Of a DNA stretch of 57,447 nt, positions 18,389-40,924 are shown in pieces (the first letter of the stretch is position 1; every line of letters starts with the position of its first letter). Made by a program: the position numbers and the translations under genes. The notes under the pieces are model-generated. The model ran no database searches. It was not told the DNA's origin and was given only the letters and a program-made list of their open reading frames with translations. Source of the DNA: a virus (taxonomy: Duplodnaviria > Caudoviricetes); IMG/VR virus record IMGVR_UViG_3300031566_000035, positions 1-57,447 of that record; one strand, written 5' to 3'.

Positions 18389-18427
18389 CGAAAAAGTATA
18401 TGAACTGAAATTAAAATTTTTTGAGCG

Positions 18428-18640
18428 ATGGCAAGAACTAAAGGAAGCGGTTGGGGTGGTGGAACTATCCTATACCAAAAATGCCCTAAATGCGGCAAAA
18501 AGAAAGTAATGTATGATGGTGGTAGCGGAATAAGAGATTTAACCTCAATTCCGTTTAAATGCACCTCATGTAAGCATAGGTTTAATGACTCTGATTTGAT
18601 TAGAGAGCAATACGCAGCAAAAGCGGGTAGGCAATTTTAA
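18428..18640 (+). CDS. Zinc-ribbon protein inside an attC-like loop
   Basis: CPKCG and CTSCK pairs. Confidence 0.75.
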   Translation: MARTKGSGWGGGTILYQKCPKCGKKKVMYDGGSGIRDLTSIPFKCTSCKHRFNDSDLIREQYAAKAGRQF

Positions 18641-18820
18641 TTTTTGTTTATATACAGTGTTGTATTGAGCGCAGCGGCGTTTTAATGCAATACAACGTAT
18701 GGTAATATGAAAAGTTGGCTTTGTAGTCACTTTCAGTTTACCATCGCAGCTTGATAGCCAATTTTTTATATTACGTGTTATCGGCTGCCTTTTATTGTTA
18801 AATTATTAAATATCAAATAA

Positions 18821-19204
18821 ATGAAAAGAGAAATATTATTTAAAGGAAAATCGGTTAATACTGGCGAATGGGTTGAAAGTATGACTATTGCAAAAGGAAC
18901 TATTAAACGCAAAAAAGATGATGTGTTTATGGAGATTGGCGAAAATAAATGGATAGGTATTGAACCTAAATCATTAAGCCAATTTATAAACCAAAAGGAT
19001 AAAAACGGCAAAAAGATTTTTGAAGGCGATTATGATGCCGATGGTAATTGTGTTGTTTGGTGTGAAAACTGTAATGGTTTTGAATTTGCTGCTATAGATG
19101 TACCAACTAAAGATATTTGCATACCATGCCATAGATGCGATGGAAATTTCTTCTTTGGCGACCAAATAAACGACTTTGAGATTGTCGGAAATATTGCGGA
19201 CTAA
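18821..19204 (+). CDS. YopX family protein
   Basis: MKREILFKGK...DKNGKKIFEGD...EIVGNI. Confidence 0.85.
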   Translation: MKREILFKGKSVNTGEWVESMTIAKGTIKRKKDDVFMEIGENKWIGIEPKSLSQFINQKDKNGKKIFEGDYDADGNCVVWCENCNGFEFAAIDVPTKDICIPCHRCDGNFFFGDQINDFEIVGNIAD

Positions 19205-19299
19205 GGTTGCCGATAACGAATAGTGGTAAGCGGTCGTTTTAATGCCGTTTACCACGTGTTACCGGCTGACACGGATTATTAACCACTAAAGATTATTAA

Positions 19300-20139
19300 A
19301 TGAACGAATGTAGCAATAACAGTTTTTTGAGCGTTGGCAAAAACGGCTTTGCCGAACTTACACACGGCTCACTTTTTAGTGGCGTTGGCGGGTTTGAAGA
19401 AGGCTCTGAGCTGGCAGGAATAAAGACTATTTGGAATTGTGAACTTGAAAATTACCAAAGTAAAATATTAAAGCAAAATTACAATGAAAGCAAACAATAT
19501 AGAGATATTACAGAAGCCGAAATCAAAGAGCGAGTTAGCATCATTAGTGGAGGTTTTCCGTGCCAAGACATTAGCGTTGCGGGAAAAATGGAAGGTATCA
19601 CAGGTAAACGCTCTGGGCTTTGGAGTGAGATGTTTAGAATTATTAGGGACATTAGACCTTACTACGTCATCATTGAAAACTCGCCAGCTTTGCTTATTCG
19701 AGGATTTGAACAAGTCTTATGCGACCTTTCCAAAATCGGGTATAATGCAGAATGGCAAAGTATTTCAAACATCGCTTTTGGATACCCACACAAGAGAGAA
19801 AGATTATACGCTATTGCCTACGCCAACGAAATCGGATTACAAAGCGACATTTGCACAGGTGACGGCTTTAACTCGATATTTAGAAAGTGGACACCAAATC
19901 AGAATGATGGATATTCTTTGTCAAAAAGGATTCACGAAATCGGAGCGTGTGAAGATATTAGAAATGGTGATGGGTTTCAATCCTGGACACACAGAGTTGG
20001 AAGCATAGGAAATGCAGTAAACCCAACAGTTGCCTACTATTTATTTGAATGTATTAAGCATCATTTTTTAAAAAGGAGGGGAGAAAAAACTGTTATTGCG
20101 GACTTACAGCAGATAACTCGATTAAATGTATCGGCGTAG
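19300..20139 (+). CDS. C5 cytosine DNA methyltransferase, alpha chain
   Basis: LFSGVGG (I), GGFPCQD (IV), ENS (VI), HKRERLY (VIII), GNAV (X); motif IX not seen. Confidence 0.92.
   Translation: MNECSNNSFLSVGKNGFAELTHGSLFSGVGGFEEGSELAGIKTIWNCELENYQSKILKQNYNESKQYRDITEAEIKERVSIISGGFPCQDISVAGKMEGITGKRSGLWSEMFRIIRDIRPYYVIIENSPALLIRGFEQVLCDLSKIGYNAEWQSISNIAFGYPHKRERLYAIAYANEIGLQSDICTGDGFNSIFRKWTPNQNDGYSLSKRIHEIGACEDIRNGDGFQSWTHRVGSIGNAVNPTVAYYLFECIKHHFLKRRGEKTVIADLQQITRLNVSA
19484..20008 (+). CDS. Overlapping alternative-frame ORF, putative methyltransferase beta chain
   Basis: Nested in the +1 frame; LLPTPTKSD and terminal LEMVMGFNPGHT resembling motif IX; true start uncertain. Confidence 0.7.
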   Translation: MKANNIEILQKPKSKSELASLVEVFRAKTLALREKWKVSQVNALGFGVRCLELLGTLDLTTSSLKTRQLCLFEDLNKSYATFPKSGIMQNGKVFQTSLLDTHTREKDYTLLPTPTKSDYKATFAQVTALTRYLESGHQIRMMDILCQKGFTKSERVKILEMVMGFNPGHTELEA

Positions 20140-20239
20140 TGTTTGCTGGTAACGGTTTGGCTATGCACCGTATGAGGAACGAATATGGGGTATAGGTGTT
20201 GTTACCCACCTGTACCGATTTAATAACGAAAAACTTTAA

Positions 20240-20692
20240 TTGAAAATGAAAACTTTTGTCTTGACTGTTTCAAAGCAGTTTCCAAAAACACACGAAAAGG
20301 CTGGAAAATCAACTGGCTTTGTAGAAAATATCTCCCGACTATTTACTAATGATAGTGAGAAGATACATACTATTCGCTCAAATTATGACCTATGGCACAA
20401 ACGAGCAAAAGAAATAAACGAAGGAAAGGCTGTGTTGTCGATTAGATACTGGTTTGAAATGCCTTACCGTTCAAAGCAAGTTGAAATTTGCAGACTTGAA
20501 AGAGTTGGTGTTGAAAAACTTGAACAGCCTGACAACTTCGTATTTGCTCCAATTGAAGGGAAGCCGATTGATTGGGAATTAGTGGCAAAGAATGACGGTT
20601 TAAGTTTTGAGGACTTTTGCGAGTGGTTTAAGTCAAGACAAAAAGAACCTATGGCTGTTCTTCATTTTACCGACTTTAGGTATGGTGGGTAA
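20240..20692 (+). CDS. ASCH/PUA-like protein
   Basis: KIHTIR...W...PYRSKQ...AKNDGLSFEDF..WF; stops at TAAC. Confidence 0.65.
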   Translation: MKMKTFVLTVSKQFPKTHEKAGKSTGFVENISRLFTNDSEKIHTIRSNYDLWHKRAKEINEGKAVLSIRYWFEMPYRSKQVEICRLERVGVEKLEQPDNFVFAPIEGKPIDWELVAKNDGLSFEDFCEWFKSRQKEPMAVLHFTDFRYGG

Positions 20693-20874
20693 CGGTGGCA
20701 ATAAGAAACGAAAGGGATTGCGAGCCACGAACCTATCAAACCGTGAAAATTTGGCACGGATTACTGAACTTGATTAACCGATTAAACCCTTTTGTTTTTT
20801 ATTGCGTGTTATAAGCCGTATTTGTTTTATTATCAACCGAAAGTAAAATAATTTAAAAATAAATCACTTTTTAC

Positions 20875-20905
20875 TTGTATATATGATATATATTATATAT
20901 CTTTA
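20875..20905 (+). promoter_or_regulatory. Internal promoter/operator in cassette 20808-21257
   Basis: TTGTAT followed by near-palindromic ATATATGATATATTATATAT and TATCTTTA (near TAnnTTTG). Confidence 0.5.
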
Positions 20906-20938
20906 CTTCATAATTAATAACAAATAAAACATACAATT

Positions 20939-21103
20939 ATGAGTACAACAGAAGTAAGAGAACAATTAAAAGCAGAAGGAATTTCTGCAATTGTTAAATT
21001 GGTAGATAATAGATTTGAAATAAAAGTAAAAATGCAGGAAAACTTTACAAAAGTAGTAAGAATGTTTCCTTTGGCAAATGTAAGCCATACAACGATTAGA
21101 TAA
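20939..21103 (+). CDS. 54-aa hypothetical protein
   Basis: MSTTEVREQLKAEG...HTTIR; below the track cutoff. Confidence 0.65.
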   Translation: MSTTEVREQLKAEGISAIVKLVDNRFEIKVKMQENFTKVVRMFPLANVSHTTIR

Positions 21104-21244
21104 ATGAAAAAGATTATTGATATACCTGACGAAATAGTTAAAGACTTAAAGAAGTTAGCTATTGACCAAAATAAAGACCTAAAAAACTTTATTCAAGACG
21201 AACTAAAAAAACTTGTCGAGAACCCTCAATCGAAGCCGTCTTAA
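21104..21244 (+). CDS. Ribbon-helix-helix (CopG/Arc-like) regulator
   Basis: MKKIIDIPDEIVKDLKKLAIDQNKDLKNFIQDELKKLV; strand-helix-helix pattern. Confidence 0.75.
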   Translation: MKKIIDIPDEIVKDLKKLAIDQNKDLKNFIQDELKKLVENPQSKPS

Positions 21245-21399
21245 TATGGCTTATAACGTTGAGTATAAGAAACGTAGCGTTTTAAAACACTTAACTACAA
21301 TAACTTACAAAAGTGAAATTGAAATAGAAAATTTAATATTAACCACTGGTGCAGCTATGTTTTTTATACATTGTTACCACCAGTACATTAATTAACAGC

Positions 21400-21645
21400 A
21401 TGAAGAAATTTAATATAAACCACTATATGTACATTCAGATAACCGATACTGGATGGCAACACCTAAAGCAAACTGTGGGTGAAGATTACATTAAACATTG
21501 TATTGAACCTTATAAAACTGATGTAGATGGCAAAACTTGGTATAGATTACAAGCCCACAGTGTATTTGAACTACTGCCAATAAATTTCGGTGGACAAGTA
21601 GCCTACAACCCTAATGTAATGTTTGACGATAAAGACCTTACTTAG
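21400..21645 (+). CDS. Cassette hypothetical protein
   Basis: Fills body 21373-21658. Confidence 0.7.
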   Translation: MKKFNINHYMYIQITDTGWQHLKQTVGEDYIKHCIEPYKTDVDGKTWYRLQAHSVFELLPINFGGQVAYNPNVMFDDKDLT

Positions 21646-21702
21646 TATTGGTGGTAACGTTGAGTGTATGGTTTGATTTTTAACGATTTAAAAGAACGAA
21701 AT

Positions 21703-21954
21703 ATGAAAGATTTAGAACACTTACAAAGAATTATAAAAGAATTGCAAAATGATAAAGATAACGGAAAACTTGGTGATTACGCACAAGGTAGATTAGCTGC
21801 ATTTAAGATGTCAGAAAAATTAGTTAAAAATTTAACTATACATATTGTTAGCAATTCGGTTTGCTGCGATAACTGCCAACACCAAACACCAAGACATAGT
21901 ATTATGTGCAGTAGTTGCTTAGGGTTTAATCACTTTCAGCAAACTGATTGCTAA
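21703..21954 (+). CDS. Cassette protein with C-terminal zinc finger
   Basis: Crosses GTT 21847; CDNC and CSSC encoded in the body. Confidence 0.7.
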   Translation: MKDLEHLQRIIKELQNDKDNGKLGDYAQGRLAAFKMSEKLVKNLTIHIVSNSVCCDNCQHQTPRHSIMCSSCLGFNHFQQTDC

Positions 21955-22076
21955 TGTTTCGACTGTATGGCGTGAGCCTTGTACTTCACAAGGCGGAAAG
22001 CCATTCAATAGATGCTTACGCTATACAGTATGTTATGAGTAGTGACACAAGTTTTAACCTTAAAATAATTATAGAA

Positions 22077-22343
22077 ATGGAAAATGTAAAAGAATTAATT
22101 GAATTAAAAGCTATGATGATATTGGCTTGTAAACTAAATAAAGAGCAACTTATAATTGAACTTACAGACCTTGTAAATTCAATTAATTCAGCATCTATCG
22201 AAAGTCGAAACATTATGAGTAATGAGGCTCAAAAAGAGCTATTAATTGATGTGCTTAATGTTATTGAGCGTTACTATGATGTAGAATTTGGTAACATTGA
22301 TAATGCAGTAAGCTATATATTAGCTAAAATTAATAGTGATTGA
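22077..22343 (+). CDS. Cassette hypothetical protein
   Basis: Within body 22032-22371. Confidence 0.6.
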   Translation: MENVKELIELKAMMILACKLNKEQLIIELTDLVNSINSASIESRNIMSNEAQKELLIDVLNVIERYYDVEFGNIDNAVSYILAKINSD

Positions 22344-22428
22344 GCCGTCCACTTGTGGCATTACTCATAACGGTTTGGCTATGTTTTGAAAATATATTTT
22401 ACTAATTTTTAACTAAAATAAAAAGATA

Positions 22429-22857: not shown

Positions 22858-23098
22858 AAATATATTTATAAAATATTAGCTGTTGTTGTATTGCGCCATT
22901 AAGGCTTGTGCACATAGCATCCGTTACGCTAAGAACTGATTATTAATATGCAGATTATCAGCTTTAAACTGATACAGAGACTATGAAACATAAAAAACAT
23001 TATAGCGTAATGGAATACAATGGATGGCAATAAGAATAGTTGGCTCTCGAAATTTAGTACAGACTTTAATTTGAAATACAAATAAAAACAAAAAAGAG

Positions 23099-23422: not shown

Positions 23423-23510
23423 GCTTTTGTTTTTATTCCACACAAACCTACTGCACTTGATTGAAAAACAAGCCAATTATTTTTATTGCGTGTTATAAAC
23501 TGTAAAAATT

Positions 23511-23702
23511 ATGAGCATATTATTAGACAAATTACTAAAAGAAGCAGACACCTCAACAACCACACAAGCAAAAGATTTGAAGTGGTATATCGCAAAACCA
23601 TTACCGTTTTATTCGTTGAAAACAAAACTTAAAAGGATAAAAGATGGATTAAGAGTTATGAACGGAAAATCTTTTGCGGTACATTATAAACAAGATGAAT
23701 AA
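23511..23702 (+). CDS. Cassette hypothetical protein
   Basis: Fills body 23492-23719. Confidence 0.7.
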   Translation: MSILLDKLLKEADTSTTTQAKDLKWYIAKPLPFYSLKTKLKRIKDGLRVMNGKSFAVHYKQDE

Positions 23703-23846
23703 TTTTTATTGTTTATAACGGCTGGCGGTATGGTTTAGTAAAGGCTGACCACTACCGACCAATCGAAGAACAAAACTTAATTCAGCCTTTATTAACTATA
23801 CCGCTTGTTAGGCTTTCGTGCTTTGCGGGCGGGAAACACAAAGATT

Positions 23847-24074
23847 ATGAGAAACTATACAACATTAGATTTAGTGAGGTTTAACAGGCTTGCAAATGAA
23901 AACAAAGACCTAAAGCCAATTGAGTTGATTAAATTATATAATGAAAAGTACCCTGAGAAAACAGCAAAAGAAAAACTGATAATTTTATCAAAGGCTTTAG
24001 GAATTAATAACCTACACAAAGCCTTAACTGGTAATGATATTCCAGAGGACGAGCGTTGGGAGCATGAAGCCTAA
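23847..24074 (+). CDS. Cassette hypothetical protein
   Basis: Stops at TAAC. Confidence 0.7.
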   Translation: MRNYTTLDLVRFNRLANENKDLKPIELIKLYNEKYPEKTAKEKLIILSKALGINNLHKALTGNDIPEDERWEHEA

Positions 24075-24134
24075 CGGCAAATTGTAAGTTGTCGGGTGCT
24101 GTTGAAATACGCACAGAATTAAATTGAAAAATAA

Positions 24135-25104: not shown

Positions 25105-25189
25105 TATTATCGCTAACGAAAAGCAATAAGAAACGTGCGAAATAACGCACAAAACTAAATACGAGTACTGATTTTAAATAAAAAAAGCG

Positions 25190-25483
25190 ATGGAAGAAAA
25201 CACAGTATTATTGAGCCTTGAAAAATATGATAGGCTAGTTGAAGCTCATAAAAAAGTAAATGAGCCAAGGAAAAAAACAGTATTAATTGAAAGCGCAATG
25301 TTTAGCCGTTATGAGTGTAAAACAGATGACGAAGCGACTGCGAAATTGGCGAATGATTTAAAAGAGGTTAAGGCTGAACTGGCAGAAGCTAAGGCGAAGT
25401 TAGACAAACTGCCAAAAGAAATAACGCTTGATGACATTAAACAAATGAGCTGGCGTGAGTTTAAGAAGTGGAAGCGTGGGTAG
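25190..25483 (+). CDS. Coiled-coil protein inside an attC-like loop
   Basis: 97 aa between arms at 25115 and 25563. Confidence 0.7.
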   Translation: MEENTVLLSLEKYDRLVEAHKKVNEPRKKTVLIESAMFSRYECKTDDEATAKLANDLKEVKAELAEAKAKLDKLPKEITLDDIKQMSWREFKKWKRG

Positions 25484-25700
25484 GCTTTTTATTTAAAATT
25501 GCCCCAATAACCCACTAAAGCTAATACGAGGCACAGACCTAAGCATGTTTTTTATTGCATGTTGTACGCTGTGCCTTGTTTAAAAGCAAACTGAACTACC
25601 AATTACGCACCAACCTAATTAAAGATTTTAGGCATTGCGTACAACGGTAGTAGGTAAGTTGCGTTGCGTGAATTTAGTAAAAACTTAAAAAATATAACAA

Positions 25701-25913
25701 ATGTTAAAATTTATAAAAAACTTATTTAAAGGTAAAAAGCAGCAATGCAATTTACCTGTTGTTAGCGGTAGTGCTTGGGATTTGCCTGATGGCGTTTACC
25801 AAGTTGGAGTTGATAAAGCAGCTAAAGGAAGTAAAGACTATAGCTGCCGTGTATGGATGAAAAAGGGAATAAGTGGAGAAATGATAATTGTAGCGGAGGA
25901 GCATTACCGCTAA
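25701..25913 (+). CDS. Cassette hypothetical protein
   Basis: Crosses GTT 25761, stops at TAAC; last unit of array 1. Confidence 0.7.
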   Translation: MLKFIKNLFKGKKQQCNLPVVSGSAWDLPDGVYQVGVDKAAKGSKDYSCRVWMKKGISGEMIIVAEEHYR

Positions 25914-25965
25914 CTATGTTATATAGTTACTTAATTGTTATTAATTTAAAAATCAAATAATTATG
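25909..25965. repeat. Array-terminal site, copy 1 (57-bp direct repeat)
   Basis: Identical to 29002-29058; core AACTATGTTATATAGTT. Confidence 0.9.
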
Positions 25966-28590: not shown

Positions 28591-29021
28591 AACGTCTTGA
28601 TGTATGAACTGATTTTTTAACGATTAAATAAACTAAAATGAAAAATATAAAGATAAATTTTGAAGGTAGAAACGAAGGTTGTGCTTTTTTTGCTTTGTAC
28701 GCAGGACTTAGAATGTACAACGAATATAAGCACGAACAACACAAGGGTAAAGATTCATTCAGTACCGCAGGAGCAGAAGCCTATGGCATCATGGAAGACC
28801 TTAGATATAGCCACCCTAAAGAATATGAAGAAGCAAAAAAAGAGTACGATAGTGAGTTGAAAAATTTGATTATACATCTTGTTAGCCAACAAAGCGAACA
28901 GTTAATTAATTTTTTAACATGGCATGATTCGGAGAACTTAGGTTGCTTACCTGACGGAATTGAAGGCAGAGTGGATGAATATCTAAAATTAATTAATTGT
29001 GGCTAACTATGTTATATAGTT
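28591..29021. mobile_element. Cassette array 2 (one complete unit plus terminal site)
   Basis: AAC 28591 GATGTATGAACTGATTTTTTAAC pairs with GTTGAAAAATTTGATTATACATC-TT-GTT 28881; body GTTAGCCA...TGGCTAAC 29007. Confidence 0.85.
28638..29006 (+). CDS. Cassette hypothetical protein
   Basis: Crosses GTT 28881, stops at TAAC. Confidence 0.7.
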   Translation: MKNIKINFEGRNEGCAFFALYAGLRMYNEYKHEQHKGKDSFSTAGAEAYGIMEDLRYSHPKEYEEAKKEYDSELKNLIIHLVSQQSEQLINFLTWHDSENLGCLPDGIEGRVDEYLKLINCG

Positions 29022-29058
29022 ACTTAATTGTTATTAATTTAAAAATCAAATAATTATG
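29002..29058. repeat. Array-terminal site, copy 2
   Basis: Identical to 25909-25965; supplies the leader and ATG of the replication gene. Confidence 0.9.
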
Positions 29059-29778
29059 GCAAAAAGATTTACTGATACAAATAAATACAAAAAACCCTTT
29101 ATAAGGGGCTTACAAGGGGCTTATAAGGTGCTTTGGGATTATATTTGCCTTGATTGCGACCATGCTGGAATTTGGATTGTCGATTTTGATGTAGCACAAA
29201 TATATGTAGGCAAAGAACCGTATATGAAAGTTAATAAATTAGATGCATTAAAATTTTTTAATACAGGAGAAATAAGAATTATAGAAATTAATGATGGATC
29301 AAAATGGTTTATACCTTCATTTATAGAATTTCAATATGGATTTTTAAATGAACAAAATCGAGCGCATAATTCTGTTATTAAAATTTTATATAAATATGGA
29401 TTTTATAAAAATAAGGGGCTTGCAAGCCCCTTACAAGGACGTAAAGATAAAGATAAAGATAAAGATAAAGATAAAGATAAAGATAAGAAGGAGAAATTTG
29501 AATTATTTTGGGAACAGTATCATATGATGACTAAACTTTTGAAATCAGATAAATCACCTACTGAAAAACACTGGATGAAACTTTCTTACGATGAAATGGA
29601 TAAGGCAATTAGTAATATTCAGCCTTATTACAATTCCTTAAGGCTTATAAATAATAAAAAACCAGTTAAAAAGGCGAGGACTTATTTATCCGATAAAAAT
29701 TTCAACGATGAATTTATTGAACCAATTAAAAAATCAAATCCACAAATATTCGAGATCGACCCAAAATTTTCACAATGA
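29056..29778 (+). CDS. Replication initiator / replisome organiser
   Basis: MAKRFTDT...LW.YI...CDHAGIW N-terminus, DKDKDK linker, FELFW..Y C-terminal domain; upstream of helicase. Confidence 0.8.
   Translation: MAKRFTDTNKYKKPFIRGLQGAYKVLWDYICLDCDHAGIWIVDFDVAQIYVGKEPYMKVNKLDALKFFNTGEIRIIEINDGSKWFIPSFIEFQYGFLNEQNRAHNSVIKILYKYGFYKNKGLASPLQGRKDKDKDKDKDKDKDKKEKFELFWEQYHMMTKLLKSDKSPTEKHWMKLSYDEMDKAISNIQPYYNSLRLINNKKPVKKARTYLSDKNFNDEFIEPIKKSNPQIFEIDPKFSQ
29413..29486. repeat. Putative replication origin elements within initiator gene
   Basis: Palindrome AAGGGGCTTGCAAGCCCCTT then about seven TAAAGA units; related AGGGGCTTA repeats at 29104-29128. Confidence 0.6.
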
Positions 29779-32465: not shown

Positions 32466-32795
32466 ATGAAAACAGAAAAAGAAAAATTAATTGATGCTCA
32501 AAAAGAGTATATTAAATTTTTAGATAAATACATAAGTGGAGTTTCAATGTATTTACATGTTCACGGACAAATTCAAAATGATAAAGATGTTAAGAAAGGA
32601 AAACTTATGAGGGATAAAATATCAGAATTAGAAAAATCAATTAATCCTCAGAATGAACCCGCTGGGCATCGAAGATTAGAGGATAATAAGGTTCAAAAAA
32701 AGCCTTGTCCTCATCCGGGAATCATGTGTTTTGACACAATGAAACCTGTTAAATGTTGGAAATGTGATAAATTATTAAGTAAAAAAGGCGATTGA
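32466..32795 (+). CDS. Hypothetical protein with Cys-rich C-terminus
   Basis: 109 aa ORF. Confidence 0.65.
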   Translation: MKTEKEKLIDAQKEYIKFLDKYISGVSMYLHVHGQIQNDKDVKKGKLMRDKISELEKSINPQNEPAGHRRLEDNKVQKKPCPHPGIMCFDTMKPVKCWKCDKLLSKKGD

Positions 32796-32876
32796 ACCGT
32801 TCGTTTTTACGATATTAACCATACCGCTTGTTAGCGTTTCGTTTTTGAGCGTTGGCGGTAGAAAACTTAAAATATC

Positions 32877-33215
32877 ATGGGAGAAACAGCAGACATGATA
32901 CTTGATGGTATCTTAGATGAACAAACAGGTGAATATATCGGTGAGGCGGTAGGATATCCACGGACAATGCAGAAAGGATGTTATAACTCAATTAAAAAAC
33001 GAAAGCCTAAACGAAACATTAAATATGCGATGAAAGGCGAAAGTTTAGGAGGGTTGCATTTAGTGGGAAAGAACGCTATAATCGAAAATGTAGGTGAATG
33101 TGAAATTGTGGACTATATAGGGAAAAGAGGTCGTAAAAGATATGTTTTGATTGATAATGAAGGTAAAGAACATAGAGTTGAATTTAGCAGTATGACGCTG
33201 TGCGTTGGCAAATGA
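32877..33215 (+). CDS. Cassette hypothetical protein
   Basis: MGETADMILDG...GEYIGE..GYPR; fills body 32830-33223. Confidence 0.75.
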   Translation: MGETADMILDGILDEQTGEYIGEAVGYPRTMQKGCYNSIKKRKPKRNIKYAMKGESLGGLHLVGKNAIIENVGECEIVDYIGKRGRKRYVLIDNEGKEHRVEFSSMTLCVGK

Positions 33216-33290
33216 ACGCTAACGGTAAAGCTATGTTGCGTGCGAGAATACAGAAAAATAATTATACGTTAAATAAAAAAAATAGAAATT

Positions 33291-33488: not shown

Positions 33489-33792
33489 CGGTGTTGACTT
33501 GGTGTTTACGTGTACTTGCGGCGAAAAAATAAACTTATAATATGGTTGCTAATGTTAGTATAAGTGGCGTTTTTTCTATGCCATTTATACATTGTTACCT
33601 GACTGGTACGATTTATAAGCCTAAAACTTTGATTTAAGCACACAATAAGTAACTATTTATTTTTTAGCGTTGGCAAATTAATGAGGCACGAATTAAAATA
33701 TTTACAAAATAATTAAAATAATTTGCTTTTATAGTTGATAATTACAAAATAAGTTATATATTTGTAGTGTAAGAAACAAACAAATAGAAATT

Positions 33793-34080
33793 ATGAAAAG
33801 AAATGTGTGGATACCAAAAATGACAAAAGGAAGATTAGAAAGATTATTAGCCAAATCAAAGTTAACTAATGATGAAAAAGAAGATTTGTTAGACTACAAG
33901 TATTTTTTACTTAATCAAAAAGTTTGTGCTTATGAGAAAAAATTAATGGATGCTGTAAGTGTTAATCAAGCAGAAGAGTTTTGCGATATTAGAGGTTGTA
34001 TTTTAGTTCCTAAAAATATGTTTTGGTTAACTAACATAAATCATTTAACTAACGGATTTAAAAGCGAATACTATTTATAA
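33793..34080 (+). CDS. Hypothetical protein in promoter-bearing cassette
   Basis: Preceded by a TATATTTG -7 box near 33757. Confidence 0.7.
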   Translation: MKRNVWIPKMTKGRLERLLAKSKLTNDEKEDLLDYKYFLLNQKVCAYEKKLMDAVSVNQAEEFCDIRGCILVPKNMFWLTNINHLTNGFKSEYYL

Positions 34081-34268
34081 TGGCATACATATACTACAAT
34101 AAAGAATTAAACCAATACAGATTGTTTGGAAGCCTTCCTGTAATGTGTAAGACTTGCGAATTAGATTACACGCATTTACAATACGCATTTAGAAATAATA
34201 AAACGGAATACGAAAACGACACTTTAAAGATTATTAAGGTTACGCTTGAAAGGGGTGGAAAAAAATAA
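34080..34268 (+). CDS. Small putative HTH regulator
   Basis: FGSLPVMC...LDYTHLQYAF helix pattern; translationally coupled. Confidence 0.6.
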   Translation: MAYIYYNKELNQYRLFGSLPVMCKTCELDYTHLQYAFRNNKTEYENDTLKIIKVTLERGGKK

Positions 34269-34474
34269 ATAGTTACGTGTAGATAAAAACAGGTTTTAGA
34301 ATTAAGCACGAACCTAAGTACTTGCAGGTACGAAAAAGTATATGATTTCGAGCCGATAAATGGCACGAAACTACAATAACAGAATAAAGTAAATTAATAT
34401 TATAAACTAAGAAGATAGCACCAACACGGCTTGAATTATATACGGTGTTGTGCATCTTTTAAAAATGCGGAATT

Positions 34475-35768: not shown

Positions 35769-36251
35769 ATGATAAAAATATTAAAAAACGAAAAAACAGA
35801 AAATGGTAATTTTTTTATATTTTTCAATACCGAAACAAAGGAAAAGGCAAGGATAAAAACAGACAATACATCTGTATTGGCGTTATGCGAACTAATAAAC
35901 GGGGAGCGGATAAATTTAAAACAGGCAGAATGCTTTAATCTTTTGGATTATAAAAGCATCTTATTAGAGAAAAAAGAGACACGTGTACAGTCGGACGTAA
36001 TGGACATATCATATTTATTGGTGAGTATAAACGGGAAAGATTACCTTAAAATCTTCCATAAAGGACAGGATATGCTTTCTTTCAGCTCCGCACCGATCAA
36101 AAACATAAAATCCTTTATGGCTTATACGGAAAAAAAACTACAAGATGTCGAATGGGGCTTGATTGATGAGCGATCCGCTATTATAGAATCATCGGAATCC
36201 ATCCTTTCTGGAATAAGAAAAGCCAATGGTTTTTATTCAATAAAAAAATAA
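35769..36251 (+). CDS. Hypothetical protein
   Basis: 160 aa ORF. Confidence 0.65.
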   Translation: MIKILKNEKTENGNFFIFFNTETKEKARIKTDNTSVLALCELINGERINLKQAECFNLLDYKSILLEKKETRVQSDVMDISYLLVSINGKDYLKIFHKGQDMLSFSSAPIKNIKSFMAYTEKKLQDVEWGLIDERSAIIESSESILSGIRKANGFYSIKK

Positions 36252-36604
36252 TTTATTTATATCCGTATTTATTATTTATAACTGCATTTACCTTTTATTT
36301 ATAGTGCCATTTATGCTTTATTTATGGCGCCATTTATCGTTTATTTATGGTTGCATTTATATATGGCGCATTAGCCCAATATAGATATATAGACACAGCG
36401 CATATGTATTAATATATATAAGAACCTTTAATTGCTATAAATAATGTACATATGTTATAATGCTTCAACTATTTGTAATTAATATAAACAACATATATAA
36501 AATATTGATAATGAAATAATTTGAAATGAAGCTTAAAAAAACGCTTGACAAATTTCTTAATTTGCTGTAGATTAGCAGAAAATTATTAACCAAAAACTTG
36601 CAAA

Positions 36605-36910: not shown

Positions 36911-36921
36911 AAAATAAAACC

Positions 36922-37173
36922 ATGAAATTCACAAAAGATCACTACAAGTTAATCAAGGACAGGTTTATAAATCTTGGAATTGATGCAATTATAGAACACC
37001 AAGCATATTGCTTGCTCAATAATTATTCAAAAACAAGATTTGTGTGGGGGGTTTATTGGGAAGCCGAGGATGAAAATTCAAGGTTGGATACATCCAATTA
37101 TTCGGACATACACATCGAAACGGCCATAACAACGGCAATAAAAGAACTATTAAAAGATAAATACCTTTATTAA
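36922..37173 (+). CDS. Hypothetical early protein
   Basis: 83 aa with AAAACCATG leader. Confidence 0.7.
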   Translation: MKFTKDHYKLIKDRFINLGIDAIIEHQAYCLLNNYSKTRFVWGVYWEAEDENSRLDTSNYSDIHIETAITTAIKELLKDKYLY

Positions 37174-37241
37174 ATCGCTTTAACACCCCTGCCCCACGGG
37201 CAGTATTTCAAACAAAAATCAATTAAAATAAACATAACATC

Positions 37242-37466
37242 ATGAAAACATCGATAAAAGAAGTATTTGAAAGCGGAAGTTGGATGATCCAACGAATCCA
37301 TCAAGGAACAAGCAACAAGACAAGGCGCATTGATGCAAAGCGAAGATTCCCAGAAGCTGATGGAAAGAATTCATTTTCAGAATGGTGCAGCACTGCATAC
37401 GCCGATAGGTTGGCGAGAGAACATTATGGGAAAAATACCAATGATTTTATGTGTTTTTGCTATTAA
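37242..37466 (+). CDS. Hypothetical early protein
   Basis: 74 aa ORF. Confidence 0.7.
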   Translation: MKTSIKEVFESGSWMIQRIHQGTSNKTRRIDAKRRFPEADGKNSFSEWCSTAYADRLAREHYGKNTNDFMCFCY

Positions 37467-37486
37467 ATAATTTAAAAACTTGCAAA

Positions 37487-37693
37487 ATGAAAAAACTAAC
37501 AAAAAAAGAATTAGCGGAATGGTATGTTAGCGCTCATTCCGACTGCGGACACGTATTATATTTTTCAGGGGATCCCCGTTCAGCGGTAACCGAAGATTAT
37601 TTTTTTAAACACCTGATGAAAAAAAGGAGAGGGGAATTGGTCGAATTGATCTATAACCATTCAGACGAGGGTAGGGCGTTTTTAAACAAATAA
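37487..37693 (+). CDS. Hypothetical early protein
   Basis: Leader AAAAACTTGCAAAATG is shared with ORF 36605. Confidence 0.65.
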   Translation: MKKLTKKELAEWYVSAHSDCGHVLYFSGDPRSAVTEDYFFKHLMKKRRGELVELIYNHSDEGRAFLNK

Positions 37694-37761
37694 TCAAAAA
37701 AAATGAAAGAAATTTCAACAAATAATTAGGATTTTAAACAAATATTAAATAACTTAGCATT

Positions 37762-38541
37762 ATGGAAACCAAAGTATTACATAATAAATTCAAATATATA
37801 TTGGAAGGATTGGCCCCTGCCGGAAAGGAAGAGGAAGGGCATCTGTACATTGAAGTTGACGGGCTTACATATGACGTTACAGCGAAGCCCGACATATACC
37901 ATGTAATGGCGTACGATAGGCCAAGGAATACAATAACGGTGGATACATGGCTGCCCGTGTTCCCCGGGTTTTACGGGACTATTTTCGATCACGGCGAAGC
38001 CATCGACATTGAACGCGAAAACATTGAACAGGACAGAAAGGATAAAGGGTTATCACCACCGCTCACACAAAAAGAAATCGAAAGCATTGACTTCGATATA
38101 AATTCAAGGATGAATGACATTGCAGCGAAATGTTGTGGAATAATGGAAATGGAACTATCAGGCTTCGTACACTCAATAGAATTCCAGGGAGTCCATAGCC
38201 CACGCTCCTACAACTTCACGAACGATCAGATCAATTGCCGTATCACGTTCGACATGCAGGCGGCCAGGAAATACATAACGGATGACATTGAAGCATTCAA
38301 GGCCCACCTAAAGGAACGGTACACATCAAGGGATGGGTTTATCCCATTGCAATCAAGCGACGCAAAAGATTGGCAATTCTACGATGTGCTAAGGGACGAA
38401 CACAAAGCGGGCGAAGTACTCCAGTTTATCTGCAACCAACAGGGCATAACAGATGAAGACCTGCAAGAGGCCTCAATGATGTACATCAGCGCCAATAACT
38501 ACGATTACGAGAAGCACGAGATAATCATTAACAACAAGTGA
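37762..38541 (+). CDS. Acidic conserved phage hypothetical protein
   Basis: FPGFY, SPRSYNFTND, YTSRDGF motifs; visibly higher GC than flanks. Confidence 0.75.
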   Translation: METKVLHNKFKYILEGLAPAGKEEEGHLYIEVDGLTYDVTAKPDIYHVMAYDRPRNTITVDTWLPVFPGFYGTIFDHGEAIDIERENIEQDRKDKGLSPPLTQKEIESIDFDINSRMNDIAAKCCGIMEMELSGFVHSIEFQGVHSPRSYNFTNDQINCRITFDMQAARKYITDDIEAFKAHLKERYTSRDGFIPLQSSDAKDWQFYDVLRDEHKAGEVLQFICNQQGITDEDLQEASMMYISANNYDYEKHEIIINNK

Positions 38542-38561
38542 ATATGTAAGCTAAACAATTT

Positions 38562-38596
38562 AAAACCCCTCTCAATAACAACAGAGGGGTTTTTTT
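38562..38596 (+). terminator. Intrinsic terminator
   Basis: AAAACCCCTCT...AGAGGGGTTTTTTT. Confidence 0.8.
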
Positions 38597-38971
38597 ATGC
38601 AATAACACACCAAACCAATACAAAAGAAGCATACTTACAGTAAAGCCCTGTCTATACTATCCGGATCAAAACAAACCAAACTATCCAAAGGCTAAAACAA
38701 ACCCAAAGAAGATCAAAGCAAACCCCATAACTTGTGGAATAAAGGGTTAATGGGCAATTGTCTTTTTTAAATCCTTTTCATGTGCGCAAGAATAACGCCC
38801 TGTAATGAACGATAACACACTTATAGTATCCATACATAGGATAATATTAAAGACCTGTTAGGTGCGCTTATATGAAGCTATATGGGTAGATTATCAGGGG
38901 GGCTGTTGAATGGTTAAAGGCAGACTTATTACTATCATTATAACTTATTGATTAATAGTGCATTAACACCT

Positions 38972-38999
38972 ACTTAACATAATGGTAATTATAGGACAA
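38972..38999 (-). other. dif-like XerCD recombination site
   Basis: Minus strand TTGTCCTATAA-TTACCA-TTATGTTAAGT, 11-6-11 layout with near-canonical XerD arm, in a long non-coding region. Confidence 0.8.
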
Positions 39000-39484
39000 A
39001 TAAATAAATATAATATACTGACACAGTGATGGTTATAAATACGTCATAAATCTTTAACATCTTTTTTGCGTTTTCGTTTTGCCCGATAGGGCCTTTTCCC
39101 TCCTATAATTACCAAACACAAAACCTAAAATAACTTTTTGGATTCGTTATAAATTACGGATATAGTTGTATATGTTACAAAAATGTAGTATTATTGCCGA
39201 TAGAACACAACAAAGATGTAGTATTGATAATTTTAAGGGGTCATTCCGCCTTGATGATGACATTAATTTTTATTGTTGGTAATGGAAAAGAATATGAATA
39301 ATAAGGGAGTAAGGCACGGGTAAGAGTCCCGTAGAAATAGGTGAAGTGTCGATAGGGCAATCAGCCAACTGCAATCCTACCCTTATTATTTATTGTTGTA
39401 TGTCTTTTTAAATTGTAGATAACGCACCGTGCGCGGAGTGAAACGGGATACAATGCGGACTGTTGATTAAAATTACAAAAGGCG

Positions 39485-39799
39485 ATGGACAAGGAAAGTA
39501 GATACGAATTACAAAAAATTGACTGCAACTGTAACGATTGCTTTTTTATGGTTAGGGATTTTGATACTTATAAAAAATGGGGATCATTTCACATGGATTT
39601 GCAATTAAAAGAATTTGAACATAAAAAAGAGAACGGAGAAATAAGACCTAATGCGCAATTTCAATTTGATAAAAGCACTTTACTTCAATATGGGAAATGC
39701 TCAAAATTAGGCAAAGGCATTTCGTTTATACCTAACGTATGTCAAATTGAGACTCAAGAGTGCTTCAAACATAGGCGAGTGCGTTTTAATGCATTTTAA
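39485..39799 (+). CDS. Cys-rich hypothetical protein
   Basis: DCNCNDC...C...C...CF. Confidence 0.7.
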   Translation: MDKESRYELQKIDCNCNDCFFMVRDFDTYKKWGSFHMDLQLKEFEHKKENGEIRPNAQFQFDKSTLLQYGKCSKLGKGISFIPNVCQIETQECFKHRRVRFNAF

Positions 39800-39829
39800 A
39801 CATTGTTGTAAATCTTTTAAATACGGAAT

Positions 39830-40066
39830 ATGGAACACGAACTTAAAATACTCCCACAATACTTCGAGGAAGTGTGGAGCGAAAACAAAACCTTTGAACT
39901 AAGAGAGGATGACAGAGATTATAAAATAGGTGATACTTTGAGACTACTTGAATTTGACTACGGAACTTATACAGGTAGAGAATGCAACCGAACAATATTA
40001 TACATACTTAGAGATGCTGACCAATACGGACTGAAAGAAGGTTTTGTGATACTAGCAATGAAGTAG
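39830..40066 (+). CDS. ASCH/DUF3850 family protein
   Basis: HELKILPQYF...KTFELR.DDRDYKIGD.L.L.E. Confidence 0.85.
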   Translation: MEHELKILPQYFEEVWSENKTFELREDDRDYKIGDTLRLLEFDYGTYTGRECNRTILYILRDADQYGLKEGFVILAMK

Positions 40067-40203
40067 TATTTTATTGTTTACAACGTTGAATGCAAGGTGT
40101 CGTGGCTGCCTGATAAAAGCTACATAGTTATAAATTTAAACAAATATTGATATGAAAAACGAAACTTTAAAACCCCAACAGCCATGCACTATATAACATA
40201 GTT

Positions 40204-40485
40204 ATGGGTAGTACTTATAGAATGCCAGAAAGTTTCTCTGAATATGAAGGCGAAGAGATTATGTCAAACTTTGACGGGCGTGTAGTAGAAGAAAGTGCAA
40301 AAGCAATTAAAGGTAAGGAATTATTTAGTAGGTATGCTGGTTGGAACTTTAACGGAAAAGTTTGGTGGCAGAATGATAAATGGTTATGTGAAGTGTGGTG
40401 TTATAGAAGCTGGAGAGAAACTTTCGTTTGTGAAACGCCAAAAGAATTAATGGAAGAGATAAGCTCTGAATATGGGTACGAATAG
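40204..40485 (+). CDS. Cassette hypothetical protein
   Basis: Fills body 40201-40498. Confidence 0.7.
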   Translation: MGSTYRMPESFSEYEGEEIMSNFDGRVVEESAKAIKGKELFSRYAGWNFNGKVWWQNDKWLCEVWCYRSWRETFVCETPKELMEEISSEYGYE

Positions 40486-40576
40486 TATTACCCATAACGG
40501 ACAGCGGTATGATTCGTTTGCTCCTCGAATCACCACGAAATTAGGAGCGTAGTATTAACTTAACAATTTACGAGCG

Positions 40577-40924
40577 ATGGATTTTGGATATGCTATACAG
40601 ATTTTAAGAGAAAAATTAGTTGATGATAGTTATGAACTTACATTAGCTGTTGAACAAAAAGATGAAGAAGTGCAGGAACGGCAAAAAGAACGCTTAGCTA
40701 TATTGCAGGATGCGATGAATGCGTTGGCTAAACCTTCGAGCATACCACAAGCAAATGAATTATTACCGCATGTTAGCGGTAGTAATAATTTTAAGAAGAT
40801 ACTTAAAAAAGCTAACAGTGAAATATGGCACCTAACTAATGATGAAATAAGAAGTTGGGAAAAAGATGGAAGTATAGAACGTGGTGATATTTTGTACAAA
40901 GTTGTAACAGATACACTGTACTAA
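40577..40924 (+). CDS. Cassette hypothetical protein
   Basis: Crosses GTT 40772 (LLPHVSGS). Confidence 0.7.
   Translation: MDFGYAIQILREKLVDDSYELTLAVEQKDEEVQERQKERLAILQDAMNALAKPSSIPQANELLPHVSGSNNFKKILKKANSEIWHLTNDEIRSWEKDGSIERGDILYKVVTDTLY

Follow-up and report, generated by a model that had tools for sequence, protein, structure and literature searches.

Cassette and stem-loop systems closest to the hairpin elements

Qi et al. (2023, PMC9892861) describe clusters of attC sites lacking an integrase (CALINs) in virulent phages; according to the same account, their cargo includes methyltransferases and one such CALIN lies in a Polaribacter phage (PMC9892861). A second system, the promoter-early stem-loops (PeSLs) of T4-type phages, is described as small conserved intergenic stem-loop cassettes located in plastic regions beside non-essential ORFs of unknown origin; the cassettes act as exchange points between otherwise unrelated sequences and give rise to insertions, deletions and replacements among close relatives, and a circular intermediate has been demonstrated for them (Arbiol et al. 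2010, PMC2839356; Comeau et al. 2014, PMC4122927).

The DNA analysed here, hereafter the window, is a phage sequence of 57,447 nucleotides (IMG/VR record IMGVR_UViG_3300031566_000035), in which paired arms together with a short G-rich repeat provide a standard frame for many of the small genes. We would place the underlying hairpin system beside the phage CALIN or the PeSL systems. Specifically, like attC sites as characterised in these accounts, its imperfect hairpin combines an R box of the form AAC...GTT with an L stem, a variable loop and a spacer that stays unpaired; a single strand folds; the stop codon often falls within TAAC; and complementarity links the distal part of one R box with the R box on the other side of the ORF, a hallmark of circular cassettes after linearisation. 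Co-oriented small ORFs with such sites between them recall attC arrays, the CALIN label as there defined needs no integrase, and a methyltransferase is among the cargo here too. Unlike attC sites, the elements show R complementarity of up to 12 bp, conserved G·T wobbles in place of identified extrahelical bases, an additional G-rich box and some ORFs inside the loop, and the flanks fit RYYYAAC / GTTRRRY only in part. In addition, the hairpin body travels here with the downstream ORF, which would put the crossover on the sense strand, within its 5' R box (TAA|C). The strand bearing the ORFs would accordingly have the layout of the attC bottom strand, opposite to the usual integron arrangement.

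The likeness to PeSLs, in the features for which they are described, extends to all the traits listed above apart from the demonstrated circle. In contrast with PeSLs as published, the unit has no recognisable promoter, the hairpin is long, two-boxed and covarying, the ORF is spanned by paired arms, host phylum and phage groups are other ones, and the limits are sharper than homology alone predicts.

In sedentary chromosomal integrons, such as those with the Vibrio cholerae repeats, one near-identical attC element stands on many unrelated small ORFs, a situation that raises the question of cassette genesis. The elements described here differ in residing in phage genomes without integrase or attI, and in a frame with a direct repeat on either side of the ORF. 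The lambda nut site, composed of boxA plus the boxB hairpin, offers a further parallel, which we take only as a lead: upstream of genes, a conserved short linear box is followed a few bases on by a small hairpin with a GNRA-like loop, and the surrounding region is full of terminator-like hairpins. However, there is no sequence similarity, the copies are many per genome, and no N-like protein was identified.

Fold, strand and across-ORF pairing of the hairpin family

Many phage contigs in IMG/VR, probably from phages of Bacteroidota, share the hairpin family that carries these motifs. The elements of this family are laid out as TAAC, an unpaired spacer, a covarying stem with conserved G·U pairs, a variable loop and GTTA. 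They were gathered by exact words and regular expressions; the loci are thus an ascertained sample, in which the invariant positions are partly built in. The 16-mer TAACGGTTTGGCTATG occurs exactly in at least 118 IMG/VR stretches, where tens of exact matches are possible by chance, but homologous flanks and several contigs with two copies indicate that most matches belong to the family. The 22-mer GCGTTGGCAAATGAACGCTAAC is found exactly in 37 stretches, preceded by unrelated coding sequence, and TTTTGAGCGTTGGCAAA in 48. A search of 50,697 deposited phage records yielded no element resembling these.

In 32 short elements, pairing reached 95.2% of cells versus 82.7% in shuffles, and the covariation score was 0.365 versus 0.148, neither value being attained in 500 shuffles; slid controls gave 24-49% pairing. 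Two G·U pairs are conserved, in 30/32 and 28/32 of these elements, so the fold exists on the + strand only. All six of the best covariance-model matches in the window are on that strand, and the elements are invariably co-oriented with the genes. Complete elements include one of the long-loop class at 18127-18227 (model R1, 36 bits, E=2.7e-5) and one of the short class, TAACGGTTTGGCTATG ... TATAGGTGTTGTTA, at 20142-20214 (R1, 63.9 bits; itself among the members of alignment A1).

In 27/120 cases, at least 7 of the 8 nt following GTTA pair, across the ORF, with the 8 nt that precede the next TAAC, compared with 2/120 for the hairpin's own TAAC and 2.3% for random partners (Wilcoxon p=1.4e-6 for the next-TAAC signal). 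Transition-type mismatches in 46 across-ORF arm pairs comprise 36 G·T versus 2 A·C (p=5e-9). Pairing with the next rather than the own TAAC is the pattern expected of linearised circular cassettes.

At the level of single genes, 6 of 60 window ORFs possess their own flanking inverted repeat (score of at least 12) versus 0.28 expected, a count reached in 0/2000 permutations, and only 0.47% of 3422 mismatched flank pairs score that high. The flanking inverted repeats are thus specific to their own ORF. Since each module's R'ext is complementary to its own R''ext, an inverted repeat surrounds the ORF in a linear array, which is what the preliminary description had sighted; most of these repeats are accounted for more simply by the splitting of the R box in a permuted att-like hairpin.

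G-rich boxes and units of the window

The G-rich box has the consensus GAGCGWTGGCA and resembles R' GTTRGC. The window contains 8 matches to AGCGWTGG versus 1.80 expected, and 7 to GCGTTGGC versus 0.67 expected, and 0/100 shuffles reach either count, so that both motifs are enriched over background. The matches are confined to 18.4-41.1 kb and, bar one, lie on the + strand. Unpaired boxes also exist, and the GCGTTGGC at 19382, considered as a boundary box, is coding sequence of methyltransferase motif I. A G-rich right-hand motif recurs just inside the right arm, in three units of the window and in contigs L172, L189 and L193; in the latter two, direct repeats (AGCGTTGG / AGCGTTGG, 8/8, and AGCGTTGG / AGCGTGGG, respectively) are located just within complementary arms. 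On both of its sides, the cargo slot is marked by the G-rich box.

All strings quoted in the preliminary description are present where it had placed them, and most of its boxes and repeats proved real. The features below are all on the + strand. The hairpin element at 18386-18662 holds ORF 18428-18640 in its apical region: it begins with TAAC (18386-18389), whose TAA is the stop of ORF 18239-18388, and continues with the L'' arm (18396-18418), a T-run, the left box GAGCGATGGCAAG (18423-18435), the cargo, the right box AGCGGGTAGGCAA (18622-18634), the L' arm (18633-18655) and R' GTTG (18659-18662). Its arms form a 23-nt inverted repeat of 87% complementarity (flank score 14), and the two boxes do lie inside it, the repeat flanking the ORF as had been claimed. 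The preceding ORF 18239-18388 is flanked, within 18213-18393, by R'ext and R''ext arms (18213-18234 and 18372-18393; 22-nt inverted repeat, 82%), the R' of the 18127 element pairing with the next R''. An ORF-less R'-R'' unit overlooked at first (18659-18696) reads GTTGTATTG, a 20-nt box-like loop beginning AGCGCAGCGG, then CAATACAAC, and is a candidate empty cargo slot; a second ORF-less hairpin with a box-like loop lies at about 3693-3762 of contig L137.

At 19313-20099, a perfect 16-bp repeat, GCAATAACAGTTTTTT (19313-19328) / AAAAAACTGTTATTGC (20084-20099), encloses a C5 DNA methyltransferase core (PF00145, E=6e-40), in agreement with the earlier observation, its orientation being inverted. 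The arms encode the first and last residues of the methyltransferase ORF; the left box is GAGCGTTGGCAAAAAC (19329-19344) and the G-rich right motif AAAAGGAGGGGAGAA (20071-20085). ORF 23511-23702 is flanked by R'ext GTTATAAACTGTAAAAATTAT (23492-23512) and R''ext ATAATTTTTATTGTTTATAAC (23699-23719), a 21-nt inverted repeat of 90% (score 15) delimiting the unit 23492-23719, in which metagenome run X2 shows a joint 23516->23699. The hairpin element at 23708-23820 follows, and at 24052-24075 a previously overlooked right-type box, AGCGTTGG...CCTAAC, ends ORF 23847-24074.

The hairpin at 25114-25564, of the GCAATAAGAAAC / GTTTTTTATTGC subfamily, has ORF 25190-25483 nested within, flanked by inner arms 25171-25188 / 25484-25499 (score 14); as reported, a left box AGCGATGG (25186-25196) and a right box AGCGTGGGTAGGC (25473-25485) lie inside these arms. 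The slot-type frame at 32830-33223 runs from R' GTTAGCGTT through a T-run, the box GAGCGTTGGCGG (32847-32858) and a leader to ORF 32877-33215 and the right 22-mer GCGTTGGCAAATGAACGCTAAC (33202-33223); the GCGTTGGC noted at both ends of this ORF is present at 32849 and 33202. The box at 33661-33677, which had been called cargo-free, is actually the junction on the left side of a filled unit. In this unit (33649-34276), the arms 33649-33665 / 34260-34276, a perfect inverted repeat of 17 bp, enclose the box at 33666-33683, a small hairpin and ORFs 33793-34080 and 34080-34268, with the G-rich right motif AAAGGGGTGGAAA at 34249-34261. Of the proposed 40572/40721 bracket, the left box GAGCGATGGATT (40572-40583) stands, its ATG being the start of ORF 40577-40924, but GCGTTGGC at 40721 lies in the middle of that ORF and therefore brackets nothing. 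Lastly, the 12-bp inverted repeat described around ORF 41007-41228 is found as AATAAAATTTAC (40991-41002) / GTAAATTTTATT (41225-41236; unit 40991-41236, score 12).

Cargo replacement and its possible explanations

Cargo is replaced inside fixed frames, and the junctions coincide with the G-rich motif. At 12 loci, one frame holds 11 unrelated cargo families, and the cargo ORF borrows from the frame both its start (the ATG in the box) and its stop (ALANER* in 8/12 loci, CVGK* in 2/12). The window and contig L073 have in common a left flank of 84% identity, extending into AGCGATGG[A/C]AGAAA, and, on the right, a flank from GTG[G/C]GTAGG together with the arm, and BLASTP between their cargo ORFs gave no match at E<=100. 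Contigs from other metagenomes join 25185->25476, 32850->33202 (X2) and 32855->33200 (X3) at the boxes, the two sides alone being known. The commonest frame has a conserved left block that continues past the box to the ATG; the box is therefore not the left limit of variability. A given hairpin body is always found with the same R'ext but with varying R''ext (L130, L135, L137, L147, L153 and window 23716). In the 99% identical genomes L060 and L066, a swapped segment is bounded on either side at TAAC|G, and the X4 metagenome joint 23720->33554 falls likewise at TAACG|.

Given this architecture, its conservation, the strand-specific fold, the across-ORF pairing and the cargo replacement, we tentatively favour, at somewhat short of even confidence, the view that standard gene modules are delimited by the G-rich motif and the inner inverted repeats, within an attC-like hairpin system. 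On the + strand, a module would comprise C, spacer, L'' stem, variable loop, L' stem and GTTA plus R'ext, followed by a T-run plus G-rich box, leader, ORF, often a second box, and R''ext plus TAA, with R'ext complementary to R''ext. Such modules would pass between phages as units by recombination at or beside TAA|C, a point suggested by one near-identical genome pair, one metagenome joint and one linkage argument, and probably via a circular or single-stranded folded form, in a manner resembling integron cassettes or, in T4-type phages, the PeSL mini-circles. The box would be the slot joining ORFs of different origin to the conserved frame, either between R'ext and R''ext or in the apical loop of the hairpin. 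The same frames with different genes in unrelated phages look like integron-style swapping without a known enzyme, and the enzyme would not be an obvious phage gene: the six-frame translation of the window revealed neither a tyrosine or serine recombinase nor a Y1 HUH transposase, Pfam named no recombinase among its large ORFs, and PF00589 is absent from three related records that are 94-100% complete. Against the module explanation, a simple R-box crossover does not yield the apical-loop ORFs (18428, 23099, 25190, 32466 and the methyltransferase), and neither a circular form nor an empty allele was directly observed.

The + strand is also the mRNA strand, so its G·T bias (36 G·T versus 2 A·C in the long-range arms) and the across-ORF pairing fit an RNA function equally. 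Hairpins and across-ORF stems could punctuate a polycistronic mRNA by processing, termination or stabilisation, as do the processing stems flanking rRNAs, with the box as a UTR motif for a protein or translation control and cargo variability due to ordinary recombination and selection for intact RNA modules. Besides the sense-strand-only fold with its conserved G·U pairs, this is favoured by co-orientation with the genes, a T-run behind R', a left block conserved up to the ATG, the negative recombinase search and a small perfect hairpin between box and ATG in 33/46 contexts, including 19/19 T-rich ones (raw counts), with loops such as GAAAA and GATA. However, the 23708-23820 element shares 90-96% identity, apical loop included, with elements of L157, L147, L135, L153, L137 and L130, whose neighbouring genes differ, which points to recent DNA transfer; the sharp TAAC|G limits in L060/L066 need more than RNA function, and a simple terminator scan did not flag the big hairpins. 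We consider this account possible but rather unlikely.

Less probable still is that hairpin, T-run and box together make up a conserved regulatory block serving merely as homology patches for gene shuffling by general or short-homology recombination, with no site-specific reaction. PeSLs behave in this way in T4-type phages, forming mini-circles, as far as their descriptions go (PMC2839356, PMC4122927), and the phage encodes an exonuclease-like protein (phrog_298). In L041/L102, a different direct repeat, 16 nt long and located at gene starts, bounds the indels, so short repeats do mediate gene indels in the contigs retrieved. Yet homologous exchange predicts neither the pairing of R'ext with the next R''ext and its strand-specific G·T tolerance nor limits after just 5 common bases (TAACG). 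Moreover, a promoter consensus at a constant position was not seen; there are 84 sigma-70-like sites versus 95.6 expected, and inspection by eye showed no Bacteroidota -7 motif at a fixed place.

The preliminary description had proposed that genes are taken up at the apex of pre-existing hairpins at a GCGTTGG-like site. On this reading, ORFs would enter empty hairpins at that loop site and duplicate it, the nested repeats being a scar of cassette genesis. A trace of this kind is possible, and the L189 and L193 direct repeats, the window/L073 junctions with unrelated cargo, the ORF-less units with box-like loops, the metagenome joints at boxes and the frame-derived starts and stops agree with it. 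Nevertheless, as a full account we judge it improbable: boxes occur unpaired, the left block is conserved past the box, nested ORF 32466-32795 has junctions without a box, the cargo lacks transposon ends, and there is no known enzyme. Specific searches for empty alleles found none; the form R'-N5-30-GCGTTGGCAAAT gave 13 matches in IMG/VR, 0 of them element-like, and the 25171 hairpin could not be found in an empty form.

Finally, chance similarity in an AT-rich genome, to which the loosely matching right-hand motifs AGGAGGGG and AGGGGTGG and the low complexity of T-rich and A-rich arms might point, is hardly credible, being already refuted by the shuffle and permutation controls and by exact 16- to 22-mers recurring in dozens of contigs.

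The hairpin family of the small-ORF array

The window, an entire virus record of 57,447 bases, ends in a 132-bp direct repeat (1-132 and 57316-57447, 99% identical), which suggests a complete genome; its source record is classed as linear, with an estimated completeness of 64%. At a G+C content of about 34%, it encodes small and large terminase subunits, portal, capsid, a DnaB-like helicase, an HNH endonuclease, an exonuclease-like protein and a C5 DNA methyltransferase, and about 60 small ORFs, located at approximately 16-42 kb, are without exception on the + strand. Megablast and blastn searches of 50,697 deposited phage records gave no close relative, the methyltransferase being the sole match, and a search with the DnaB-like helicase returned distant relatives alone (at most 36% identity). 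A hairpin used as blastn query against deposited phages retrieved nothing relevant, Rfam (E≤1) gave one weak, unrelated match, and a tRNA search found none. A 22-mer from the array is present in seven genome contigs, six of which are titled Bacteroidota, so that the host of the phage is probably a member of this phylum.

In addition, a 57-nt stretch is 100% identical at 25909-25965 and 29002-29058, upstream of ORFs 25963 and 29056 (GCTAACTATGTTATATAGTTAC...), and occurs also at 20885-20941; its palindrome-like core is found as a 20-nt, 95% inverted pair at 40185-40204 and 41372-41391, 1.2 kb apart. Contig depth in the bin 29006-29672 was far above the rest in all four metagenome runs. About six ...CATTTAT..TTTATTTATGG... 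units form an iteron-like run (36252-36420) in a 353-nt AT-rich gap behind ORF 35769-36251, and this run may be a replication origin.

The intergenic regions of the window contain a family of long imperfect hairpins. Specifically, TAAC and about 5 unpaired bases precede a stem (e.g. GGCTATG / TATAGCC) with a loop of 10 to more than 60 nt, and the return stem is followed by 2-3 unpaired bases and GTTA (the R' end), often with a T-run next. The 16-mer TAACGGTTTGGCTATG occurs exactly in at least 118 IMG/VR stretches, where by a rough estimate tens of exact matches could arise by chance in a collection of this size; among the matches listed, most have the same flank layout and several contigs carry two copies. 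Elements of the window share 90-96% identity with those in contigs where the neighbouring genes are unrelated, and the carriers of the family span from genomes of about 30 kb to contigs of more than 300 kb.

In an alignment of 32 non-redundant short elements, RNAalifold predicted 15 pairs, compensatory changes being present in 6. On these short elements (n=32), 95.2% of cells pair, compared to 82.7% in shuffles, and the covariation score is 0.365, compared to 0.148, with none of 500 shuffles as high for either value; slid controls pair at 24-49%. Gathering the elements by exact words and regular expressions makes the invariance of TAAC, TAT and GTT partly a matter of construction, which does not apply to the covarying positions; GTTA is present in 24 of the 32. 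Two G·U pairs are nearly invariant (30/32 and 28/32), indicating that the fold forms only on the + strand, and the six best window matches of a covariance model built from the 32 elements all lie on that strand.

The apical loops belong to a small number of conserved classes, GAGG[A/C]ACGA, CGTTTTAATG and GTACTTGTATGG (e.g. window 20166-20195 and 33684-33700, and many loci of other phage contigs), and a common binding partner is possible. Moreover, the 3' half of the hairpin (TTTACCnnnTGTTAGCGG) is found at 16023, 24580, 25751, 40760 and 41475, inside the first 20-60 codons of ORFs; the ORFs starting inside a hairpin element (15976, 24535, 25701, 40577 and 41408) share peptides such as LPCVSGS and LPVVSGS.

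Pairing of arms across ORFs and probable limits of the modules

The inverted repeats which the preliminary description had noted around cargo genes at 18421-40728 proved to be real and ORF-specific: when flanks of 45 nt are compared, a score of 12 or more is reached by 6 of 60 ORFs, compared to 0.47% of 3422 mismatched flank pairs, and 0 of 2000 permutations matched the observed 6/60. Beside these six, further perfect inverted repeats of 16 bp (19313 / 20084) and 17 bp (33649 / 34260) were found.

The pairing of the arms was measured on 120 complete hairpins with a TAAC-type half site no more than 2.5 kb downstream, taking the 8 nt behind GTTA as the extended arm (R'ext). With the 8 nt ahead of the next downstream TAAC, R'ext pairs at 7 or more of 8 positions in 27/120 cases (mean contiguous run 3.2), compared to 2/120 (mean run 0.9) with the 8 nt ahead of its own TAAC and to 2.3% (mean run 0.8) with random partners (next versus own, Wilcoxon p=1.4e-6). 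Therefore, each ORF is bracketed by arms belonging together, and the hairpin in the array is closed by TAAC / GTTA only. This pattern is expected if a circular element carrying a single complete hairpin is cut open within its R box and then lined up in an array; the pattern is also a known property of integron cassettes. Among 46 well-paired arm pairs, the transition-type mismatches comprise 36 G·T and 2 A·C (p=5e-9), which argues for selection on + strand pairing of the arms too.

Three lines of evidence point to TAA|C as the probable limit of a module. The hairpin body stays constant together with R'ext while the upstream flanks differ (at window 23716 and in the phage contig loci L130, L135, L137, L147 and L153); two loci that are 99% identical, L060 and L066, differ by a segment of 2034 versus 306 nt, with both limits exactly after TAACG; and in a contig of metagenome run X4, TAACG at 23720 runs into the hairpin body at 33554. 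With this limit, a module would consist of hairpin body, R'ext, ORF, the pairing arm R''ext and TAA; the TAA of TAAC is the stop codon of at least nine window ORFs. The all-against-all blastn comparison of the loci yielded two informative near-identical pairs only. A second kind of linker was seen in the phage contig pair L041:520-1423 and L102 (reverse) 1-650, 99.6% identical and differing by insertion or replacement of small ORFs, where the differing stretches are bounded at gene starts by a direct repeat of 16-18 nt (AAACAAGACTAAGATG, gene strand).

The G-rich box, its conserved frame and the hairpin apex

The strings quoted for a G-rich motif on both sides of cargo genes were each found in place, and the motif is enriched: AGCGWTGG occurs 8 times (1.8 expected) and GCGTTGGC 7 times (0.67 expected), with neither count reached in 100 shuffles. 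The copies are confined to 18.4-41.1 kb and lie on the + strand except for one. Left copies, at or just before ORF starts, map at 18423, 19329, 25186, 32847 and 40572, and three of these five provide the start codon of the ORF with the ATG they contain. Right copies at ORF ends map at 18622, 25473 and 33202, with an additional one, previously overlooked, at 24052. Two further assignments had to be revised, as the supposedly bracketing GCGTTGGC at 40721 sits in the middle of an ORF, and the box at 33661, described as cargo-free, is actually the left junction of a unit enclosed by the 17-bp repeat and holding two ORFs.

The box is a conserved 10-13-mer, GAGCG[T/A]TGGCA, with variants GGGTTGGCA and GGGTAGGCA, and looks similar to the R' core GTTRGC on visual inspection. 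Other phage contigs carry it in the same places as the window: right behind R' and a T-run, as GTTAGCGTTTCGTTTTTGAGCGTTGGC (L042, L082, L120 and others), or within a longer series of T-rich tract, box, small hairpin and ATG. Among 46 distinct contexts of TTTTGAGCGTTGGCAAA, 19 are T-rich, and all 19 have the order box, small hairpin, ATG; the GAGGCACGA loop recurs in this small hairpin. The gene after the T-rich box is often of N6/N4 methyltransferase type, as judged by eye from the N-terminus: products starting like N6/N4 DNA methyltransferases (M..LYKGDCL..) repeatedly follow T-rich tract, box and small hairpin (loci L173, L175, L182, L188, L189, L193, L194, L200, L202, L203, L210, L212, L213, L215 and L216). 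A window box precedes the C5 methyltransferase, and methyltransferases may be a favoured cargo. The HNH endonuclease gene which opens the small-ORF array (16258-16785; phrog_2118, E=5e-37) has a 66% identical copy in locus L121 that begins at the ATG of a GAGCGATGGCA box.

Known kinds of element were considered by eye. A sigma-54 -24/-12 promoter was rejected for its wrong spacing in L100, a Bacteroidota -33/-7 promoter because the TA of TAnnTTTG is absent and the spacing wrong, and a lox-like site because the cargo-side arms are not inverted copies; a Chi-like hotspot was set aside as well.

The right box lies within a 22-mer, GCGTTGGCAAATGAACGCTAAC, found exactly in 37 IMG/VR stretches with unrelated coding sequence ahead of it. 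Left and right blocks are both common to twelve loci, the window among them, which carry 11 unrelated ORF families, L128 and L140 being the only homologous pair. The ORFs of these loci end in ALANER* (8/12), CVGK* (2/12) or their own stop (2/12), and in L120 the end reads KRWQNER*. As one DNA block closes different reading frames, its conservation acts at the DNA or RNA level, and a peptide-level role of the ALANER tail was discarded. Conservation on the right side has a sharp edge at (A)GT|GCGTTGGC; leftward it continues beyond the box up to the ATG.

Several ORFs (18428, 23099, 25190, 32466 and the methyltransferase) are located inside a hairpin and not between hairpins, in the order arm, T-run, box, ORF, G-rich motif, arm'. 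L172, L189 and L193 repeat this arrangement with 0.8-1.3 kb between the arms, and the direct repeat of L189, AGCGTTGG / AGCGTTGG, matches at 8/8 positions; at the junctions of the nested ORF 32466 no box was found. The clearest case is ORF 25190-25483: locus L073 has an 84% identical left flank and the same right flank around an ORF without similarity, and its arms have changed on both sides with complementarity kept.

Joints were also read from contigs of four metagenome DNA sequencing runs placed on the window, where only the covered parts are interpreted. Breaks, covering the two sides of each joint, were observed at the same kind of points, namely 25185->25476, 32850->33202, 32855->33200, 23516->23699, 23046->23468 and 21685->21820; in one contig the hairpin is empty, 35 nt separating 23045 from 18756. 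ORF-less R'-R'' units whose loop resembles the box occur at 18659-18696 of the window and at about 3693-3762 of L137. The IMG/VR searches, on the other hand, did not recover the specific empty alleles of the same hairpin that related phages had been expected to provide: GTTAGCG-N5-30-GCGTTGGCAAAT gave 13 matches, all in unrelated coding sequence, and the arms of the 25171 hairpin with a 0-30 nt gap gave none. All together, a conserved frame that holds unrelated ORFs, carries a direct repeat at each joint and has ORF-less units close by offers concrete sequences on which the origin of cassettes can be tested.

Proposed module exchange, alternative readings and known systems

We tentatively favour a reading in which the motifs are the limits of cassette-like modules, exchanged between phages at or near TAA|C, and in which the box marks the slot where ORFs would be joined to the conserved frame. 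If true, phages of a major environmental phylum would possess an integron-like gene exchange operating without an integrase, with genes on the folding strand and frames common to very different phages, and this movement would explain the spread of small accessory genes, including anti-restriction methyltransferases.

The main rival is a role in RNA, with hairpins, arms and box as processing or termination signals on the mRNA, which we hold possible though somewhat unlikely. As the + strand is the mRNA strand, the G·U tolerance, the co-orientation with genes, the T-runs and the box-plus-hairpin ahead of start codons all suit such signals, which would make them a new kind of structured punctuation, widespread in phage operons. 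The two readings are compatible, since the promoter-early stem-loops (PeSLs) of T4-type phages are regulatory elements that also mediate shuffling (PMC2839356, PMC4122927); exchange between adjacent PeSLs gives rise to mini-circles. Indels and replacements bounded by elements, as in PeSLs, were found here (L060/L066, window versus L073, the 12-locus frame). A PeSL joins a strong, early sigma-70-like promoter to a terminator stem-loop. In the window, sigma-70-like sites are not enriched (84, compared to 95.6 expected); the big hairpins were not called as terminators by a simple scan (loop of at most 8 nt), although a T-run lies behind R' in many copies.

A more specific and rather doubtful proposal makes the box GCGTTGGC, with its R'-like GTTRGC core, a second recombination site of an ORF-less universal frame, placed in a loop there, either that of the R'/R'' hairpin or that at the hairpin apex. 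New ORFs would be spliced in there, leaving a box on both sides and taking the start or stop codon from the frame, and phage sequences would then display cassette assembly, a step unsolved for integrons. The enzyme would not be recognisable as a phage tyrosine, serine or HUH recombinase. Six-frame translation of the window revealed no tyrosine recombinase (PF00589), serine recombinase or Y1 HUH transposase, and PF00589 matched one of five related records.

Purely homology-driven exchange, which does not predict limits falling exactly after TAACG, is unlikely. The idea of the preliminary description, that cassettes originate by capture at the box, overlaps with the cassette-module reading and, with the boxless junctions of ORF 32466 in mind, is improbable. 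Chance is hardly credible beside the shuffled and permuted controls, and a transposon or MITE with target-site duplication was rejected, as the cargos have no common ends and the repeat is one motif at every site.

The closest described systems are the PeSLs and the integrase-less attC clusters (CALINs) of virulent phages. No description of the hairpin family was found in the literature searched; the supplementary tables of Qi et al. 2023, outside the search, could list related sites. A complete integron needs an adjacent integrase, the tyrosine recombinase IntI, whereas a CALIN does not, and the family differs from the classical integron in having no recombinase in the window and no PF00589 in three relatives that are 94-100% complete. 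The attC consensus R''(RYYYAAC)-L''...L'-R'(GTTRRRY) fits the family flanks in some copies only (e.g. GTTAGGC at 23812), the unpaired central spacer measures about 5 nt instead of 2-3 nt, the L stem covaries, and no attC-type extrahelical bases were identified in the hairpins. As expected of integron cassettes, which are delimited inside the R box, the distal R' pairs across the ORF with R''. In contrast to the integron crossover at G|TT of R', with the ORF upstream of its own attC, the hairpin body of the family stays with the R'ext and ORF that lie downstream of it; together with the TAAC|G limits of L060/L066, this suggests that the crossover takes place in the sense-strand 5' box. In the attC R-R' box the site is G|TTRRRY and the bottom strand is the more active (Qi et al. 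2023, PMC9892861).

Compared to both phage attC clusters and PeSLs, the family differs in the side of the inferred crossover, in ORF orientation, in its 12-bp arms pairing across the ORF, in its conserved wobble pairs, in the G-rich box on both cargo sides, in ORFs lying inside the loop and in the apparent lack of a recognisable promoter. Qi et al. (2023, PMC9892861) describe integrase-less attC clusters in virulent phages, one of them a Polaribacter phage, with methyltransferases among the cargo, and report that IntI1 recombined 5 of 6 phage attC sites tested.
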